DNA of 32,000 nt, taken from Methanothermobacter thermautotrophicus str. Delta H (GTDB lineage: Archaea > Methanobacteriota > Methanobacteria > Methanobacteriales > Methanothermobacteraceae). The notes under the pieces are model-generated. The model saw only the letters and a list, made by a program, of their open reading frames with translations, had not been told where the DNA came from and did not search any database. The stretch spans positions 60,001-92,000 of the forward strand of contig NC_000916.1 of the NCBI RefSeq assembly GCF_000008645.1. Direction: 5' to 3'. The translations under genes and the position numbers were made by a program. Positions 11,708 through 21,858 of the stretch are shown piece by piece (position 1 is the stretch's first letter; each line of letters opens with the position of its first letter).

Positions 11708-12834
11708 CTACTTCATCATTATATCAAGGACACCGGGCCTTTTAGTCTTCTTATTACCTCCAAGGATTCCGGATTCAAGGAATTCCCTGTTGGCCCTCCT
11801 GTTGATTTCGGCGAAGATCATCTTGTAGGCCTCGCACTGGTGGTCAACACCGTCTATCTCCATTTCACCATCCCTGATGGTGATTGCATTGTAGGGGCAC
11901 CCACCGAGACAGAACCTGTAGAAGTCACAGTCGCCACATTCCTCATCAACAAGTTCCCTCCATTCATAGAGCCTCCTTAGGGCTTCACTCTCCTCAAGAT
12001 CCTCCATTGAGGGCCTTTCAGCCACATTACCCATTATGTAGTCCTTCATACCAACGAAGCGATAGCATGGGTATATATCACCGTAGGGGTCAACTGCGAA
12101 GGTGTTGCCCACACAATCAGCATGTGTACATACAACCCCCTTCTGAGGAATGCGCTCTTTGCAAAGTGGTCTATGTTCTGTATCTCGATCTCACCGAAGT
12201 GCTCAAGGTAGCTGTCAAGGAGATACAGGAGCAGGTCACCGTACTCCTCGGCGGTTATGGCCCACTCCTCAGGGTCTGAACTCTTCAGGGATGGCAGGGC
12301 AGGGTGCAGCTTCAGGTTCATACCGTTCTCCAGGAAGAAGTTGAATATCTCCTCCCTCCTCCTTATCGAATAGGATGTGAAGGTGCTTATGAAGCTCACC
12401 CGAAGCCCATGCTTCCTTGCTATCTCATAGCCCTGCATGGTCCTATCAAAGTACCCATCGCCCCTCTGGTAATCATTTATCTCCCTTGGACCGTCGAGGC
12501 TTGAACCGATGGGTATGCTGTATTCTGCGAAGAGTTCCGCCATTTCATCGGTCATCAACCAGAGGTTCGTCTGGATGGCGAAGGCAGGCTTGAGGAATGA
12601 AAGCCTCTCAGATATTAGCTTGAGGGTGTCGCGGTAGAATTCGTATCCCGCAAGGAGCGGTTCCCCTCCATGGAATGTGAAGGTTGCAGGTTCATTTCTG
12701 AATTCCATAAGCCAGGAGACCATCTCCCTCACGGTTTCCATGTCCATAACCCTGGAGTCCCTGTCAACGCCCCAGCAGTAGCTGCAGTCTGAGGGACAGT
12801 TCATGGATGGTATTATCATGACATGGAATGCCAT
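11708..12834 (-). pseudogene. Radical SAM enzyme with a C-terminal SPASM domain (anSME/AslB-like). Frame is broken at the C5 run 12136-12140 as sequenced.
   Basis: The N-terminal part (12834->) has the CPSDCSYC radical-SAM triad and GGEPLL. After ...AKSAFLRRG the frame decays, while the adjacent frame reads VVCTHADCVGNTFAVDPYGDIYPCYRF...CGDCDFYRFCLGGCPYN...HQCEAYK, which is a SPASM/twitch Cys pattern. Adding one base to the G5 run (plus-strand C5 at 12136-12140) gives one ~375-aa protein. Confidence 0.85.
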
Positions 12835-13201: not shown

Positions 13202-13771
13202 TTGGTTGAGAGTCCTGAATACACCGTTGAACTGAAGGATGGTAAATTTGAGATAAGAAGGTACCCTGGCTATATACTTGCACAGGTTGACGTTGAAGCC
13301 AGTTTCAGGGACGCCATGGTCATAGGCTTTTCTATTCTTGCAAACTACATATTTGGTGGTAACCGGCGGAAGGAGGAACTTCCAATGACATCACCTGTAA
13401 CCGGTGTTAACCTGGGCTCCTCTGAGAGGATACCCATGAAGGTCCCTGTGACAGAGGAGGTCCCGGATGATGCTGATTCAGGGAAATACAGAATATCATT
13501 CACGATGCCATCATCATACACCCTTGAAACTCTCCCGGAGCCACTTGATGACAGAATTAGATTTCGCGAAGAGAAGGATCAACGTTTTGCAGCCTACAGG
13601 TTCTCGGGGAGGGTTAACAGTGATATGGCAGCTCAAAGGATAGCTGAACTTAAAGAATGGCTTGAAAGGAATTCAATTGAACCAAGATCAAACTTCATAA
13701 TAGCACAGTACAATCACCCGGCCGTCCCTGGCTTTTTGAGGAAAAATGAGGTTCTTGTGAAGATAGATTGA
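13202..13771 (+). CDS. SOUL heme-binding-protein family protein
   Basis: 189 aa beginning (TTG)VESPEYTVELKDGKFEIRRYPGY, with ...RFAAYRFSG...IAQYNHP..PGFLRKNEVLV typical of SOUL/HBP. TTG start with a GGGGGT RBS 7 nt upstream. Confidence 0.85.
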   Translation: MVESPEYTVELKDGKFEIRRYPGYILAQVDVEASFRDAMVIGFSILANYIFGGNRRKEELPMTSPVTGVNLGSSERIPMKVPVTEEVPDDADSGKYRISFTMPSSYTLETLPEPLDDRIRFREEKDQRFAAYRFSGRVNSDMAAQRIAELKEWLERNSIEPRSNFIIAQYNHPAVPGFLRKNEVLVKID

Positions 13772-17844: not shown

Positions 17845-18312
17845 TTAAAGGTACACTCCCCTCATGAATCTGAGTATTCCCCCTAAGGGAGAATCCTCCT
17901 TATCCTCCTCTATCTTCAGTTTCATGACAAAGTCTGAGAGCCAGTCTGCAAGTCTGTATCTTCTGAGGTCTGAGGGCTCAACCCAGGCAAAGCCCTCATG
18001 TTCATGGCTGAGTTTCACACTGCCCTCTGCCCTGCACCTGATTATGATATGGGCCGCGTTGATCACCGGAAATTTCTGTTCAACAACACCCATAACCTCT
18101 TCAGGGATAATTTCAAGGTTTGTTTCTTCCTTAACTTCCCTTTTAAGGGCTTCTTCCAGTGATTCGCCTGTACCGATCTTTCCACCGGGAAGCTCCCACC
18201 TGGAGGCGTTGGTCTTTGAATCAGAGGCTCTCTTGATCAGGAGGACCCTTCCATCATCGTCTTCAATGAAGGCCCTCACAGCAAGGATATAAACACTTCC
18301 GACCATAGGCAT
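17845..18312 (-). CDS. NUDIX hydrolase (MutT-like)
   Basis: Nudix box GGKIGTGESLEEALKREVKEETNLEI (GX5EX7REUXEEXGU). Confidence 0.9.
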   Translation of the reverse strand: MPMVGSVYILAVRAFIEDDDGRVLLIKRASDSKTNASRWELPGGKIGTGESLEEALKREVKEETNLEIIPEEVMGVVEQKFPVINAAHIIIRCRAEGSVKLSHEHEGFAWVEPSDLRRYRLADWLSDFVMKLKIEEDKEDSPLGGILRFMRGVYL

Positions 18313-18439: not shown

Positions 18440-19510
18440 TTAATGGTTCCAGTCTCTGAATTCAATGGAGACCCTAGTTCCACCATGAGATTCGATTTTC
18501 AGATCCCCGTTCATCTGCTCTGAGAGACTTCTGATAAGCTGCATCCCCATTGTTGAAGTACTCATGGGGTCAAAATCTTCTGGAAGGCCCACACCATTGT
18601 CAAATATCTCAAGAAGATAGCCATCATCACTCCTTTTAAATGAAACCCTTATAATCCCCCCTCTTCCCTCAGGGAATCCATGTTTGATGGCGTTGGTGAA
18701 CACCTCATTCACTATGAGTGCCAGCGGCACAACGGTGTTTATGTCCAGTTCAGCGTCATCTATATCTGTTTCAAGGCCTATACGCCCGGAGTCCTGGATG
18801 AATGAATGGTAAAGGTCCCTCACAAGGCCCCTGAGATACTCTCCAAAATCAACCCTCCTCTCTTTGCCGGAGGTGTATAGCCTCTCATGAAGCATGGCCA
18901 TTGCTCTGGCCTTTGACTGGGCCTCCCTGAATAGCATCAGGTCGTCCCGGTCCTTCACGTACCTTGACTGGATGTTCAGGATGCTTGAGATTATCATGAG
19001 GTTGTTCTTGACCCTGTGGTTTATCTCCCGCAGCAGCATCTCCTTCTCCTCAAGGGCGCGCTGGAGTTCAAGGTTCTTCTTCAGAAGTTCTCTCTGGGCT
19101 GCGGATAGCTCATTGTTTAGCCGTGTGAGTTCATTGAAGAGTTCTTTTTCGACTTCAGCATGCTCAGGGATCTCTATTTCGGGTGCTGGGGGTATGTATT
19201 GTTCTGCAAGGTGATAGATCTTTATCATATCCTCCCTTGATGGTGAACCCACAACGTAAATCCTGTCAGAATCGAGGAATCCTGAGAAGTGGTAGGTTTT
19301 AAGATTACGCAGGTTCATCTCCCAGTTATATGCAGCCCCATTTTTCCGGATCTTATCAAGAAAGTTTGAAGCCTTCTCCTGGCTGCCATGGTCCATGAGA
19401 CCGGCAAAGGAGCCCATCCCATGGGGAATGTCAGCACCGTAGCCTGTTATCTTCTCTATGGTTCCATCCCTTTTCAGGATCAGGAACACGCCTTCAATTT
19501 CATCGGCCAT
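18440..19510 (-). CDS. Soluble sensor histidine kinase, HisKA_2 (HWE-like) type
   Basis: Small PAS-like N-domain, a coiled coil ([28 protein letters not shown]), the H-box [21 protein letters not shown], and HATPase_c ([24 protein letters not shown]). No TM segments. Confidence 0.9.
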
Positions 19511-19601
19511 GATTGTTCACTCCAGTAAGGAGGTTGTACTGGACCTCATTTATTGGGTCAAGAGGGACCCTCCTACAAGGTGTTACCATTGGTTCACCTC
19601 T

Positions 19602-20546
19602 TTAAATGTCAAGGAATTCTTCTGCGACCTTCACAGCACCGGATGCATCTGCAGCATGGAGGTCCGCACCAACCTTCTTCCAGAGTTTTATGTCAACGTT
19701 GAAGGGGTACCCTCCGACCATAACCGGTGGTCGGTCCTCCAGTTCATCCAGGAGCTCTATGATATGCCTTACATGACTGACGTTGAAGGTCATGGTGGCT
19801 GACAGGGCCACAAGATCCGGTTTGAGGTCAGAAACTATGCCACTGAAGTCCTCCGGGGGAGTGTTCGCTCCAAGGTAAATTGATTCCCAGCCATTCATCT
19901 CAAAGAAGTCACTCACCATCCTTATCCCTATCTCATGGAGCTCATTGTTAACGCATGCCGCCACCAGCTTGAGGTTTCGCCTCTCTGAGGCGCTGTAGAT
20001 GTAGGGGTAGAGCTCTGACATTATGCTCTGGGTGACAGATGTTGCATAGTGTTCATGGGCCACCGATATCTGGTTGGTCTGCCACAGCCTCCCTATCTCG
20101 TGCTGAACAGGCTCGAAGACCTGGAGGTATATATCCTCCACCCGGATACCGGATTCCAGGGATGATACTATGAGTTCCCGGGCTTCCCGGGCCTCTGTAT
20201 TCAGAACTAGTCTGAGGTACTCCTCTGCAAGTTCACGGAGGGGTTGGTCCCCCAGGTGGCTTGATGATGGATGTGAAGTTTCAAGGATTTTGAGTGCGCC
20301 TGAAATGTACTCTGATGCCTTATCAGCAACTTCATCATCGGCTAATTTCATAATGGCCCTTTCTATACTTTTAATAGAACCTCTGAGACATTCTTCAGGC
20401 AGACCCAGATTCTTAAGGAGAACATCTGCCCATAGCACATAGTCACTGAAGAGCTCCGGACTGGAGTTGAGGATTGCCTCCTCAAGGTAATCCAGGTGGT
20501 AGTTTATATCCTGCAGGCAGAGCTCCTCATCTGACACAAGGCCCAT
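19602..20546 (-). CDS. Cobalamin-binding protein with a CarH-like four-helix-bundle + Rossmann module
   Basis: W155-x9-E165-H166 (IGRLWQTNQISVAHEHY), E202-L-H204-E-I-G207, LSATMT and VMVGG. The N-terminal ~100 aa are unrecognised. The 5' end is uncertain (see findings). Confidence 0.88.
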   Translation of the reverse strand: MGLVSDEELCLQDINYHLDYLEEAILNSSPELFSDYVLWADVLLKNLGLPEECLRGSIKSIERAIMKLADDEVADKASEYISGALKILETSHPSSSHLGDQPLRELAEEYLRLVLNTEAREARELIVSSLESGIRVEDIYLQVFEPVQHEIGRLWQTNQISVAHEHYATSVTQSIMSELYPYIYSASERRNLKLVAACVNNELHEIGIRMVSDFFEMNGWESIYLGANTPPEDFSGIVSDLKPDLVALSATMTFNVSHVRHIIELLDELEDRPPVMVGGYPFNVDIKLWKKVGADLHAADASGAVKVAEEFLDI

Positions 20547-20675
20547 CTCATCAAGATCTCTGTAAACCTCCCTACAACTGCATTCCTGTCCATTACAGTT
20601 CGCATCAAGCCCCCTCCAAATAGTATTTAAGATGAAACCAAGATAAGAGATTTATCATTTTCACAGGAGATCTTG

Positions 20676-20861
20676 ATGAAGTCGGCGGAAGGTTTCAGAA
20701 TAATATCTGCAACAGGGGAATGTCCATTATGTGTCTACCGGTGTGAGGTGGTGGTTGAGGATTTGAAGGAGGTTAAGGTGTACTGCAGACACCCCAGGGG
20801 TCCGGGTAACCCGTCACACTGCATATACTTCCGGAGGGACAGGAAAGTGGATGGGTATTAA
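20676..20861 (+). CDS. Small Cys/His-rich hypothetical protein (61 aa)
   Basis: MKSAEGFRIISATGECPLCVYRCEVVVEDLKEVKVYCRHPRGPGNPSHCIYF... AGGAGA RBS. Divergent from the B12-binding gene. Confidence 0.5.
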   Translation: MKSAEGFRIISATGECPLCVYRCEVVVEDLKEVKVYCRHPRGPGNPSHCIYFRRDRKVDGY

Positions 20862-20976
20862 GAGATGCTATGTGGATAACATTTATATCTTGCTTTGAAT
20901 AAAAAGACATATTAATTAAAAATAATTATAATTATTATTCATAATAGATTTGCATAATGGATCTGCAGGTGTTAAG

Positions 20977-21858
20977 ATGCTTACCTCTGTTCAGAAGGAG
21001 ATACTTCAGACACTCATTAACCTTTACCGGAACTCAAATGGCAAGTCAATCAAGGGGGAGGAGATAGCCGCCATAATGAACCGGAACCCCGGCACAATAA
21101 GGAACCAGATGCAGTCCCTCAGAAGTCTGGGTCTTGTTAAGGGGGTGCCTGGACCCCGGGGGGGCTACAAGCCAACAATAAAGGCCTACCACCAGCTGAA
21201 CATATCCTCAACAGGCAGGGAGACCGCTGTACCGATTTACAGGGACGGGGAGCAGATTGAGGACCTATCAGTGGCTAAAATTGAATTCACCAGCATACCT
21301 GATCCCGGTGAGTGCGAAGCCGCCATAAAACTTGTTGGAAGTATAAGGAAACTTGACCTCGGTGACAGGGTGCGGATAGGTCCAACCCCTGTTAACAAGC
21401 TTGTGGTTGATGGTGTGGTTGTCGGAAGAGACGATATGGATAACATCATCCTCCTCGATACAACCGCTATAAGAAGCATACCCAAGAAGACCGTTGCTGA
21501 GGTCGCAACCCGTGATCTTGTAACACTCGCACCTGATATAACTGTGAAGGAGGCTGCAGCCCGCCTATCATCCCTTGGAATCGAGGGCGCCCCCATAGTG
21601 GAGGACGATGAGGTTAAGGGTATAGTGACGCTCAGTGATATAACGGCATCCATAGCCGCAGGCACAGAGTTCATGCAGGTTTCAGATATCATGTCAAAGA
21701 ATATAATAACGGTTAAACAGGATACGATGATAGCCGATGCCATTGAGGTTATGAATAAACACAATATTGGCCGGCTGATAGTCACAGACAGTGAGGGGAG
21801 GCCCACAGGCATAATAACCAGGACAGACATTCTTGACAGCATCGCCGGACTTGAATGA
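20977..21858 (+). CDS. Transcriptional regulator: N-terminal HTH plus a C-terminal CBS pair
   Basis: MLTSVQKEILQTLINLYRNSNGKSIKGEEIAAIMNRNPGTIRNQMQSLRSLGLVKGVPGPRGGYKPT is the archaeal HTH-CBS regulator N-domain. Two CBS motifs follow (GAPIVEDDEVKGIVTLSDI and GRLIVTDSEGRPTGIITRTDIL). Start at ATG 20977 after AGGTG. Confidence 0.85.
   Translation: MLTSVQKEILQTLINLYRNSNGKSIKGEEIAAIMNRNPGTIRNQMQSLRSLGLVKGVPGPRGGYKPTIKAYHQLNISSTGRETAVPIYRDGEQIEDLSVAKIEFTSIPDPGECEAAIKLVGSIRKLDLGDRVRIGPTPVNKLVVDGVVVGRDDMDNIILLDTTAIRSIPKKTVAEVATRDLVTLAPDITVKEAAARLSSLGIEGAPIVEDDEVKGIVTLSDITASIAAGTEFMQVSDIMSKNIITVKQDTMIADAIEVMNKHNIGRLIVTDSEGRPTGIITRTDILDSIAGLE

Follow-up and report, generated by a model that had tools for sequence, protein, structure and literature searches.

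The cobalamin photoreceptors shown to work so far either are DNA-binding repressors, as is the case of CarH, or regulate a diguanylate cyclase fused to them. The CarH/LitR proteins of Thermus thermophilus, Myxococcus xanthus and Bacillus megaterium are light-regulated repressors of the MerR type that depend on adenosylcobalamin (AdoCbl), and they combine a four-helix bundle, whose Wx9EH motif forms the adenosyl pocket, with a Rossmann domain in which an E/DxHxxG motif ligates cobalt in the His-on form. In the photocobilins SasPcob and AbDPcob (PDB entries 8J2W, 8J2X and 8J2Y), a CarH-like bundle and Rossmann B12 module is joined to a phycobiliprotein-like globin; light activates the fused diguanylate cyclase more than 10-fold, regulation also takes place in trans, and the light-induced cleavage of the Co-C bond changes the conformation or the quaternary structure of the protein (Zhang et al. 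2024; PMC10979010). Stand-alone photocobilins are thought to act through protein-protein contacts, and the 2024 paper left their targets open (PMC10979010). Here, we analyse a 32-kb stretch of the genome of Methanothermobacter thermautotrophicus str. Delta H (contig NC_000916.1, positions 60,001 to 92,000; hereafter, the window), in which the gene MTH124 is predicted to encode a stand-alone sensor of this type and the adjacent gene MTH123 probably encodes its cognate histidine kinase.

The globin family concerned, named photoglobin, was described computationally by Schneider et al. (2021). Its members are usually fused before or after a B12-binding_2 domain plus a B12-binding one, occur in both bacteria and archaea, and are associated with signalling genes, histidine kinases included (PMC8717448). 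The two members characterised as photocobilins have the globin at the opposite end with respect to MTH124 (PMC10979010), and the permuted group with an N-terminal globin is listed in the two papers from predicted structures only (PMC8717448, PMC10979010). The sensor family and a general link to two-component signalling, with archaeal examples, are therefore already published. An earlier note on this DNA held that such a pair had not been characterised in methanogens: this stands as far as experiments are concerned, whereas the family, archaeal members included, had been described bioinformatically in 2021 (PMC8717448). With respect to the portions of PMC8717448, PMC10979010 and PMC11796333 consulted, three elements are new, namely a dedicated partner domain with its helix, whose pairing is reciprocal and near-obligate, the phycobiliprotein Cys kept by the subgroup with the N-terminal globin, and a conserved bilin pocket in a methanogen for which neither haem synthesis nor O2 for haem cleavage is expected. 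The analysis points to a natural target for stand-alone sensors, that is, a kinase, a cyclase or an adaptor that carries a specific N-terminal domain and helix motif, and to a two-protein system open to direct reconstitution. Moreover, the locus lies in a genetically tractable model methanogen, would provide a route to asking whether methanogens perceive light, and raises the question of which tetrapyrrole fills the bilin pocket of an organism thought to be haem-free.

Domain composition of the sensor MTH124

The gene MTH124 (19602..20605, reverse strand; AAB84630.1 / O26227, "conserved protein") is predicted to encode a photocobilin-type sensor with two chromophores, B12 and a bilin, in which the globin stands at the N-terminus and is followed by a four-helix bundle and a Rossmann B12-binding domain. 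The open reading frame (ORF) indicated by the earlier note, 19602-20546(-), is confirmed, but as a 5'-truncated reading of 314 aa, whose numbering is used throughout; the full-length form of sister strains has 334 aa (e.g., WP_269899395.1). The AlphaFold2 (AF2) model of the protein (pLDDT 94.6, pTM 0.89) displays five N-terminal helices, the four-helix bundle and the Rossmann fold.

The roughly 100 N-terminal residues had been assigned by the earlier note to no recognised family. Profile similarity instead identifies this region (in-frame part at 20286..20546, reverse strand) as a photoglobin, that is, a predicted phycobiliprotein-like bilin-binding globin. Specifically, a profile of the N-terminal 118 residues alone matches, among the PDB sequences, allophycocyanin and phycocyanin chains (best E 7e-9, allophycocyanin beta), as well as smURFP, the C-terminal domain of 8J2W (2e-5) and 8J2Y (1.6e-4), and phmmer gives a second, weak alignment between residues 10-64 and the globin domain found at the C-terminus of the photocobilins. 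The Pfam Phycobilisome model remains below threshold for the sensor of the window (18.8 versus 22.2 bits) and is recorded for many relatives. The family motif KCLQD aligns on the phycobiliprotein ACLRD, which contains the bilin-attachment Cys and the pyrrole-coordinating Asp. In MTH124, the segment CLQD (20508-20519, reverse strand) provides C10, at the position of the attachment Cys, and D13, while VLWADV (20421-20438, reverse strand) holds W39; once a 6-residue difference between the chain index and the numbering of the paper is corrected for, D13 and W39 correspond to the residues of SasPcob that contact biliverdin, Asp270 and Trp296 (PMC10979010). In a family alignment of 108 homologues, with a mean identity of about 44%, the bilin Asp (equivalent to photoglobin D49) and the Trp are invariant (108/108), and the phycobiliprotein-type Cys is kept in 76 members, MTH124 included, unlike SasPcob and AbPcob, which lack it. 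A further difference from the photocobilins is that helices A and B are shortened in Methanothermobacter.

The cobalamin-binding domain (CBD) begins with the four-helix bundle (B12-binding_2; 19995..20237, reverse strand), which carries G152-x-x-W155-Q156 and E165-H166. This is the Wx9EH motif (W155-H166 at 20084-20049) that forms the adenosyl pocket in CarH and photocobilins. The Rossmann B12-binding domain (19611..19973, reverse strand) carries N-E202-L-H204-E-I-G207, in which the His is the lower cobalt ligand, together with G226-A-N-T-P230, S-A-T (249-251, within LSATMT, 248-253) and VMVGG (275-279). The Pfam models PF02607 (residues 106-179, E 3e-17) and PF02310 (residues 193-296, E 1e-24) both match above their gathering scores, and Pfam gives no helix-turn-helix (HTH) or MerR match in the sensor. 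W155, E165, H166, E202, H204, G207, LSATMT and VMVGG, as well as the lack of a MerR-type DNA-binding domain, are exactly as the earlier note had read them, and its assignment to a CarH/LitR-type module holds for the Wx9EH and E/DxHxxG motifs; the idea of a bare CarH deprived of its DNA-binding domain does not, given the photoglobin N-terminus.

Light-responsive CBDs are recognised by the four elements GxxW, EH, GxxH and GxxxP, found together in only 1,561 of 128,000 CBD sequences (PMC11796333). GxxW (G152-R-L-W155), EH (E165-H166) and GxxxP (G226-A-N-T-P230) are fully present in MTH124. Across the 108 homologues, no variation is found in the bilin Asp and Trp, in G-x-x-W-Q, in E-H, in the His ligand and the E-x-G after it, in GxxxP or in S-x-T and, because this invariance is observed at such a low mean identity, the signature residues are conserved beyond chance; the conservation of W-x9-EH that the earlier note had left to be checked is thus found throughout the family. 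In agreement with a photoreceptor-type rather than a methyl-carrier cobalamin signature, the corresponding positions are W...EH in SasPcob, AbPcob and the Chloracidobacterium protein CtMerR, for all of which a response to light has been observed experimentally, as in MTH124, and F...LI in the Desulfitobacterium corrinoid protein 4JGI. Similarly, a phmmer search of the PDB sequences ranks the photocobilins 8J2W/8J2X (E 7e-24) and 8J2Y first, followed by the CBD of CtMerR (8JBS), all ahead of the methyl-carrier corrinoid proteins and of T. thermophilus CarH (TtCarH). The CBD of the AF2 model superposes on 8J2W, 8J2X and 8J2Y at 2.0-2.2 A, a comparison that covers the CBD only, as the sequential alignment of Foldseek does not reach the permuted globin.

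Taken together, MTH124 shares with the photocobilins the W-Q...EH motif, the His ligand, GxxxP, the biliverdin-contact Asp and Trp and the absence of a DNA-binding domain. The residue after the Trp, Q156, is an invariant Gln in the family, as in SasPcob, and replaces His132 of TtCarH, the residue of the bis-His light-state adduct. In contrast to the photocobilins, MTH124, known here from sequence, belongs to an anaerobic archaeal host with no evident source of biliverdin and has a defined histidine-kinase partner with a dedicated N-terminal domain. With respect to CarH/LitR, it lacks the MerR domain, carries an extra globin and would have a separate kinase as output. The corrinoid proteins of methyltransferase systems (MtaC, MtbC, MtmC, MttC, MtgC) have the same two Pfam domains and the His-on motif in common with MTH124, and a similar CBD fold; unlike MTH124, they have neither the W/EH adenosyl pocket (shown for 4JGI) nor a globin, their genes lie beside those of methyltransferases, and they carry a methyl- rather than an adenosyl-cobamide. 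A methyl-carrier function is also at odds with the abundance of the sensor family in bacteria such as Adhaeribacter, Rufibacter and Acidobacteriota, which are not known for methylotrophic methanogenesis.

The partner kinase MTH123 and the conservation of the pair

Immediately downstream of the sensor, on the same strand and at a distance of 91 nt, as the earlier note had claimed, lies a kinase ORF with a HisKA_2 (HWE-related) domain (18440..19510, reverse strand; AAB84629.1, "sensory transduction histidine kinase"), which encodes a soluble protein of 356 aa; its locus name, MTH123, is assigned by adjacency only. Pfam detects HisKA_2 (PF07568) at residues 162-236 (E 3e-26, 91.7 versus 22.3 bits), so that all three domain models named in the earlier note score above their gathering values, and HATPase_c (PF02518) at residues 262-352 (E 2e-13, 51.1 versus 26.4 bits). 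Four parts can be distinguished, all on the reverse strand: an N-terminal partner domain (residues 7-102; 19205..19492), common to the bacterial partners of sensor homologues; a signalling helix with a near-invariant motif (residues 118-158; 19037..19159), including ELTRLNNEL at 19106-19132; the HisKA_2 dimerisation/phospho-acceptor (DHp) domain (18803..19027), with the H-box EINHRVKNN and H165; and the HATPase_c catalytic domain (18455..18727), with the N-box, G1 DNGVG and G2 GMQL. In the AF2 model of the kinase (pLDDT 81), the N-terminal domain 7-102 is confidently predicted and is followed by a disordered linker and by one uninterrupted helix (118-183), leading from the motif straight into the DHp domain.

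The closest solved structure to the kinase over its full length, according to Foldseek, is EL346 of Erythrobacter litoralis, a blue-light kinase of LOV-HisKA_2 architecture (4R3A, E 4e-15; core 4R39 at 3.9 A, 25% identity), with other PAS and LOV kinases coming next. Like EL346 and the Brucella LOV-HK, MTH123 is soluble and would combine a PAS-like sensor domain, a long helix, a HisKA_2 DHp domain and a catalytic domain. Unlike the LOV kinases, its N-terminal domain shows neither a recognisable flavin-binding LOV sequence nor a PAS match in Pfam, and the predicted cofactors are on a separate protein; the PAS-like domain would thus dock the sensor or relay its signal instead of sensing light. 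The term PAS-like is to be intended as topological, since it is suggested by the order of the secondary structures (beta-beta-alpha-alpha-beta-beta-beta-alpha) and by full-length Foldseek matches with a large root-mean-square deviation. No Pfam model covers this domain, and relaxing the threshold up to E 10 gives coiled-coil noise only. The hhalign comparison of the partner-domain alignment with a kinase carrying a Pfam-annotated PAS domain, from a metagenome-assembled genome (MAG) of Methanomassiliicoccales, matched the helix motif and not the PAS domain.

The 91-nt spacer between sensor and kinase (19511..19601, reverse strand) contains GGAGTGA as a ribosome-binding site, 6 nt ahead of the ATG of the kinase, and, on direct reading, no obvious T-run terminator or TATA box. 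Within Methanothermobacter the gene order is conserved, with the HrcA-CBS gene followed, on the opposite strand, by the sensor, the HisKA_2 kinase and a NUDIX gene, and in a 54% identical Methanobacteriales relative (L028) sensor and kinase overlap by 4 nt and the three co-directional genes overlap or abut; the synteny across Methanobacteriales proposed for checking by the earlier note is therefore present in both. Within the genus, the sensor and kinase genes show a ratio of nonsynonymous to synonymous substitution rates (dN/dS) of 0.10-0.16, and both are under purifying selection.

The association extends well beyond the methanogens. In 21 genome loci with a sensor homologue, a directly adjacent protein with the partner domain is present in 15 (downstream in 14), 3 are placed at a contig edge and 3 have no such neighbour, giving 15 of 18 informative loci; the paired ones include Chloroflexota, Bacteroidota, Acidobacteriota, Desulfobacterota, Polyangiales and Methanomassiliicoccales. 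The reciprocal test was carried out on 80 metagenomic loci retrieved by the partner-domain alignment alone, 60 of which had at least 1 kb of upstream DNA, and in 58 of these 60 a photoglobin/CBD ORF ends just upstream of the partner gene on the same strand. The bacterial partners carry HisKA rather than HisKA_2, and yet have in common with MTH123 the N-terminal domain of about 110 residues and the helix, with consensus DELSRLNNELxxxQRELxKKNxEL. A word-index search with the kinase N-terminal domain alone gave no matches, and an exhaustive HMMER search and a profile query were used instead. The HMMER search returned 498 cluster representatives with the domain, always N-terminal. The architectures recorded include HisKA/HATPase_c, GGDEF, PAS and, in Methanothermobacter, HisKA_2, as well as stand-alone proteins of 165-190 aa; one GGDEF and one stand-alone example were examined, and both adjoin a sensor gene. 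These data support a functional sensor-kinase pair, near-obligate and reciprocal. The two-protein signalling pair of the earlier note is thus strengthened as regards the pairing and revised as regards a CarH-only module, and it is not a peculiarity of methanogens, being widespread in bacteria, usually with HisKA kinases.

An apparent sensor-kinase fusion of 824 aa (L009:3269-5740), a candidate Rosetta-stone protein, was discarded, as its junction is a masked run of N translated as X. Other arrangements were recorded as well. In the Methanomassiliicoccales MAG mentioned above (L024:6902-8447), the partner domain is a separate small ORF directly after the sensor gene, and the next ORF joins the TRLNNE helix to a canonical PAS domain and to a HisKA kinase, a wiring unlike that of Methanothermobacter. 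On a 3.9-Mb bacterial contig (L030:5689-9830), an ABM monooxygenase gene and the photoglobin-B12 sensor are followed by a 178-aa protein with only the partner domain and the TRLNNEL helix, a KaiC-like double ATPase and KaiB; this arrangement could provide light input to a Kai-type clock.

Mechanism and alternative explanations

On balance, and with some reserve, we favour as probable the reading in which MTH124 is a stand-alone photoglobin/photocobilin sensor and MTH123, co-transcribed downstream, is its cognate soluble histidine kinase. Cofactor binding, response to light and regulation through protein-protein contact would follow by homology with CarH and the photocobilins. In this model, the sensor would bind adenosylcobamide in the base-off/His-on form through H204, with a linear tetrapyrrole held by the globin and packed against the cobalamin module, and the dark holo-sensor would contact the PAS-like domain and/or the TRLNNEL helix of the kinase. 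Green or blue light would cleave the Co-C bond, causing the departure of the adenosyl group held by W155, E165 and H166, and the sensor would then alter its conformation or oligomeric state. Such a change may be transmitted through the continuous helix to the HisKA_2 DHp domain, altering autophosphorylation at H165 and, in turn, phosphotransfer to a receiver encoded elsewhere. The N-terminal domain, together with the helix, is the likely site where the signal is received and relayed, because near-obligate adjacency to the sensor is kept while the output is swapped among HisKA, HisKA_2, GGDEF or none.

Several observations weigh against this photoreceptor-kinase reading. In Methanothermobacter, the Gly of the GxxH element is replaced by Asn (N-E-L-H), the His ligand H204 being present; among the 108 family members this position is Gly in 83, Asn in 10 and Asp in 7. 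The fold alone has no power to separate photoreceptor CBDs from methyl carriers, given that the methyl carrier MtmC (3EZX) is also close to the CBD, with a target-normalised TM-score of 0.84. NCBIfam models of methyl carriers (MtgC 71.7 versus a cut-off of 370, pyl_corrinoid 63.4 versus 215, MtbC 62.5 versus 350; MtaC, 37 versus 420, scores lower) are slightly above the CarH equivalog (58.8 bits versus 400), all of them lying far under their cut-offs. As the earlier note had stated, there is no receiver (REC) domain in the window, according to both Pfam on the substantial ORFs and a REC profile run against every ORF of 60 aa or more, nor is one found nearby in Methanothermobacter-type loci; a REC match occurs in 44 of 106 loci surveyed. 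The strain deltaH allele of the sensor, moreover, loses 20 residues, corresponding to helix A of the globin in the AF2 model. Haem and O2 are required for making biliverdin, and M. thermautotrophicus lives as a strict anaerobe in mostly dark habitats and is one of the methanogens, thought to be without haem; neither an ABM nor a haem-oxygenase gene is present at any archaeal locus, and the window has no ABM gene. Finally, there is no published experiment on any member with the N-terminal globin order or on any sensor-kinase pair.

As for the supply of the second chromophore in bacteria, a gene for an ABM-family monooxygenase, with the haem-degrading fold of IsdG/MhuD, is the immediate upstream neighbour of the sensor, in the same orientation, in 22 of 73 loci (e.g., L031:5649-5975 and L030:5689-5985), and this enzyme is a possible source of bilin. 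A bolder proposal, distinctly unlikely as a whole, starts from the Cys/Asp/Trp pocket kept under purifying selection in an organism that should lack both haem and its oxygen-dependent cleavage. It is that Methanothermobacter loads the photoglobin with an anaerobically made tetrapyrrole other than biliverdin, for example one that is anaerobilin-like or derived from the corrinoid/F430 pathway, and that the pair would be a true photoreceptor-kinase system warning of oxic, photic conditions, with the N-terminal domain and TRLNNEL helix acting as a dedicated photocobilin-receiver module, hitherto without a name, on HisKA, HisKA_2, GGDEF and Kai-linked outputs.

A different signal might act on the very same pair. 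The sensor could respond to cobamide loading, cobalt redox state or oxygen, in the manner of AerR/PpaA, and the kinase could tune corrinoid, cobalt or stress metabolism; we hold this to be possible, though rather unlikely. A dark, anaerobic lifestyle and archaeal loci devoid of a bilin-producing gene are in its favour, and binding of AdoCbl alone lowers the activity of AbDPcob with respect to the apoprotein (PMC10979010). The genes cbiMNQ and an ABC ATPase begin about 3.8 kb from the pair, as located by Pfam on a collinear sister contig and by size-matched ORFs of the window, which also fits a cobalt- or cobamide-related signal. The vicinity reported by the earlier note is therefore real; as support for a cobalt/corrinoid regulon, however, and as a part of the system, cbiMNQO was rejected, since in L028 these genes are no longer close to the pair, so that the vicinity is not conserved even within the Methanobacteriales. 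Furthermore, in L030, L031 and L112, the bacterial loci for which a detailed annotation was made, no corrinoid-pathway genes lie beside the pair. The adenosyl-pocket W/EH and the bilin Asp, Trp and Cys are retained under purifying selection, for which retained photochemistry is the simplest explanation, though ligand sensing is still compatible with it.

The photoreceptor-kinase system might also be crippled in deltaH, as a decaying or partly functional copy deprived of its start-codon context and of the first globin helix. The true start of MTH124 is the ATG at 20605-20603, preceded by the ribosome-binding site GGAGGGGG and opening the sequence MRTVMDRNAVVG, which matches the N-terminus of the 334-aa orthologue (98% identical). 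In the window, this frame is broken after codon 12 by a one-base deletion with respect to sister strains (20570..20572, reverse strand; GGG versus GGGG in the DNA alignment with sister contigs), which separates the ATG from the start of the 314-aa ORF at 20546. A sequencing error was ruled out: because the same deletion is found in five independent environmental assemblies, it is a genuine allele of the deltaH lineage. In addition, in a Methanothermobacter-like metagenome contig (L032, 2502-4839) both genes are fragmented, the sensor being divided at a short duplicated stretch (SIMSELY) and the kinase lacking its middle part, owing either to a fault of the assembly or to a pair that decays in this lineage. 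Against a crippled copy, the deletion is fixed and identical in the five assemblies, and the exact 314-aa product is present in many sequence collections (207 index blocks); downstream of the frameshift the 314 codons are intact, with a dN/dS of 0.16 versus the intact allele, all chromophore-contact residues lie 3' of the new start, and the kinase is undamaged. We hold a crippled copy in deltaH to be very unlikely.

Lastly, the reading of MTH124 as an MtaC/MtbC-type methyl carrier, in one version, proposed by Schroeder and Thauer and cited in PMC7005905, the physiological methyl donor of the archaeal methylcobalamin:homocysteine methyltransferase in methionine synthesis, finds an echo in the top-ranking NCBIfam models, in the 3EZX match and in automated names of close relatives, which go from "MtbC1 corrinoid protein" (also "methanogenic corrinoid protein MtbC1") to "MerR family light-induced regulator", and is exceedingly improbable, as the scores far under cut-offs, W..EH in place of F..LI, the fused photoglobin and a conserved neighbour that is a kinase and not a methyltransferase (no MtaB/MtbB/MtaA-like gene occurs among the window ORFs scanned with Pfam) all speak against it.

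Other genes of the window

On the far side of the kinase, a NUDIX hydrolase gene (17845..18312, reverse strand) is found 3' of MTH123 in the window and at the same position in the annotated Methanobacteriales loci (L001-L006, L028 and L029) and in L032. In L028 it starts at the last base of the kinase gene (L028:8135-8524), while in the window 127 nt, with a TTTATAT box among them, separate it from the kinase; it may belong to the operon as its third gene or be transcribed independently.

Upstream of the sensor, and on the opposite strand, Pfam identifies a regulator with an HrcA-type winged helix-turn-helix and CBS domains (20950-21858, forward strand), to which the earlier note had pointed as the nearest DNA-binding protein. 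As an output of the pair this regulator was rejected, since its position in the Methanobacteriales is conserved along with that of unrelated housekeeping genes (pyrF, deoxyhypusine synthase); the bacterial loci examined do not have it as an annotated neighbour, and nothing beyond genus-level gene order links it to the pair. Between this gene and the sensor start lies a Cys-rich ORF of 62 aa (20673-20861, forward strand; CPLC...C...C..H.C) with no Pfam match, which is a called gene in the sister contigs, is conserved in L032 and is absent in the more distant L028.

Two further features of the window were noted. A protein of the SOUL haem-binding family (PF04832, E 3e-46) is encoded at 13202-13771 on the forward strand, about 6 kb from the sensor; it represents a tetrapyrrole-binding protein in a methanogen usually considered haem-free. 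On the reverse strand, at 11708-12834, a SPASM ORF (11708-12112) and a Radical_SAM ORF (12046-12834) overlap, and they have the appearance of a single radical-SAM/SPASM gene interrupted by a frameshift.

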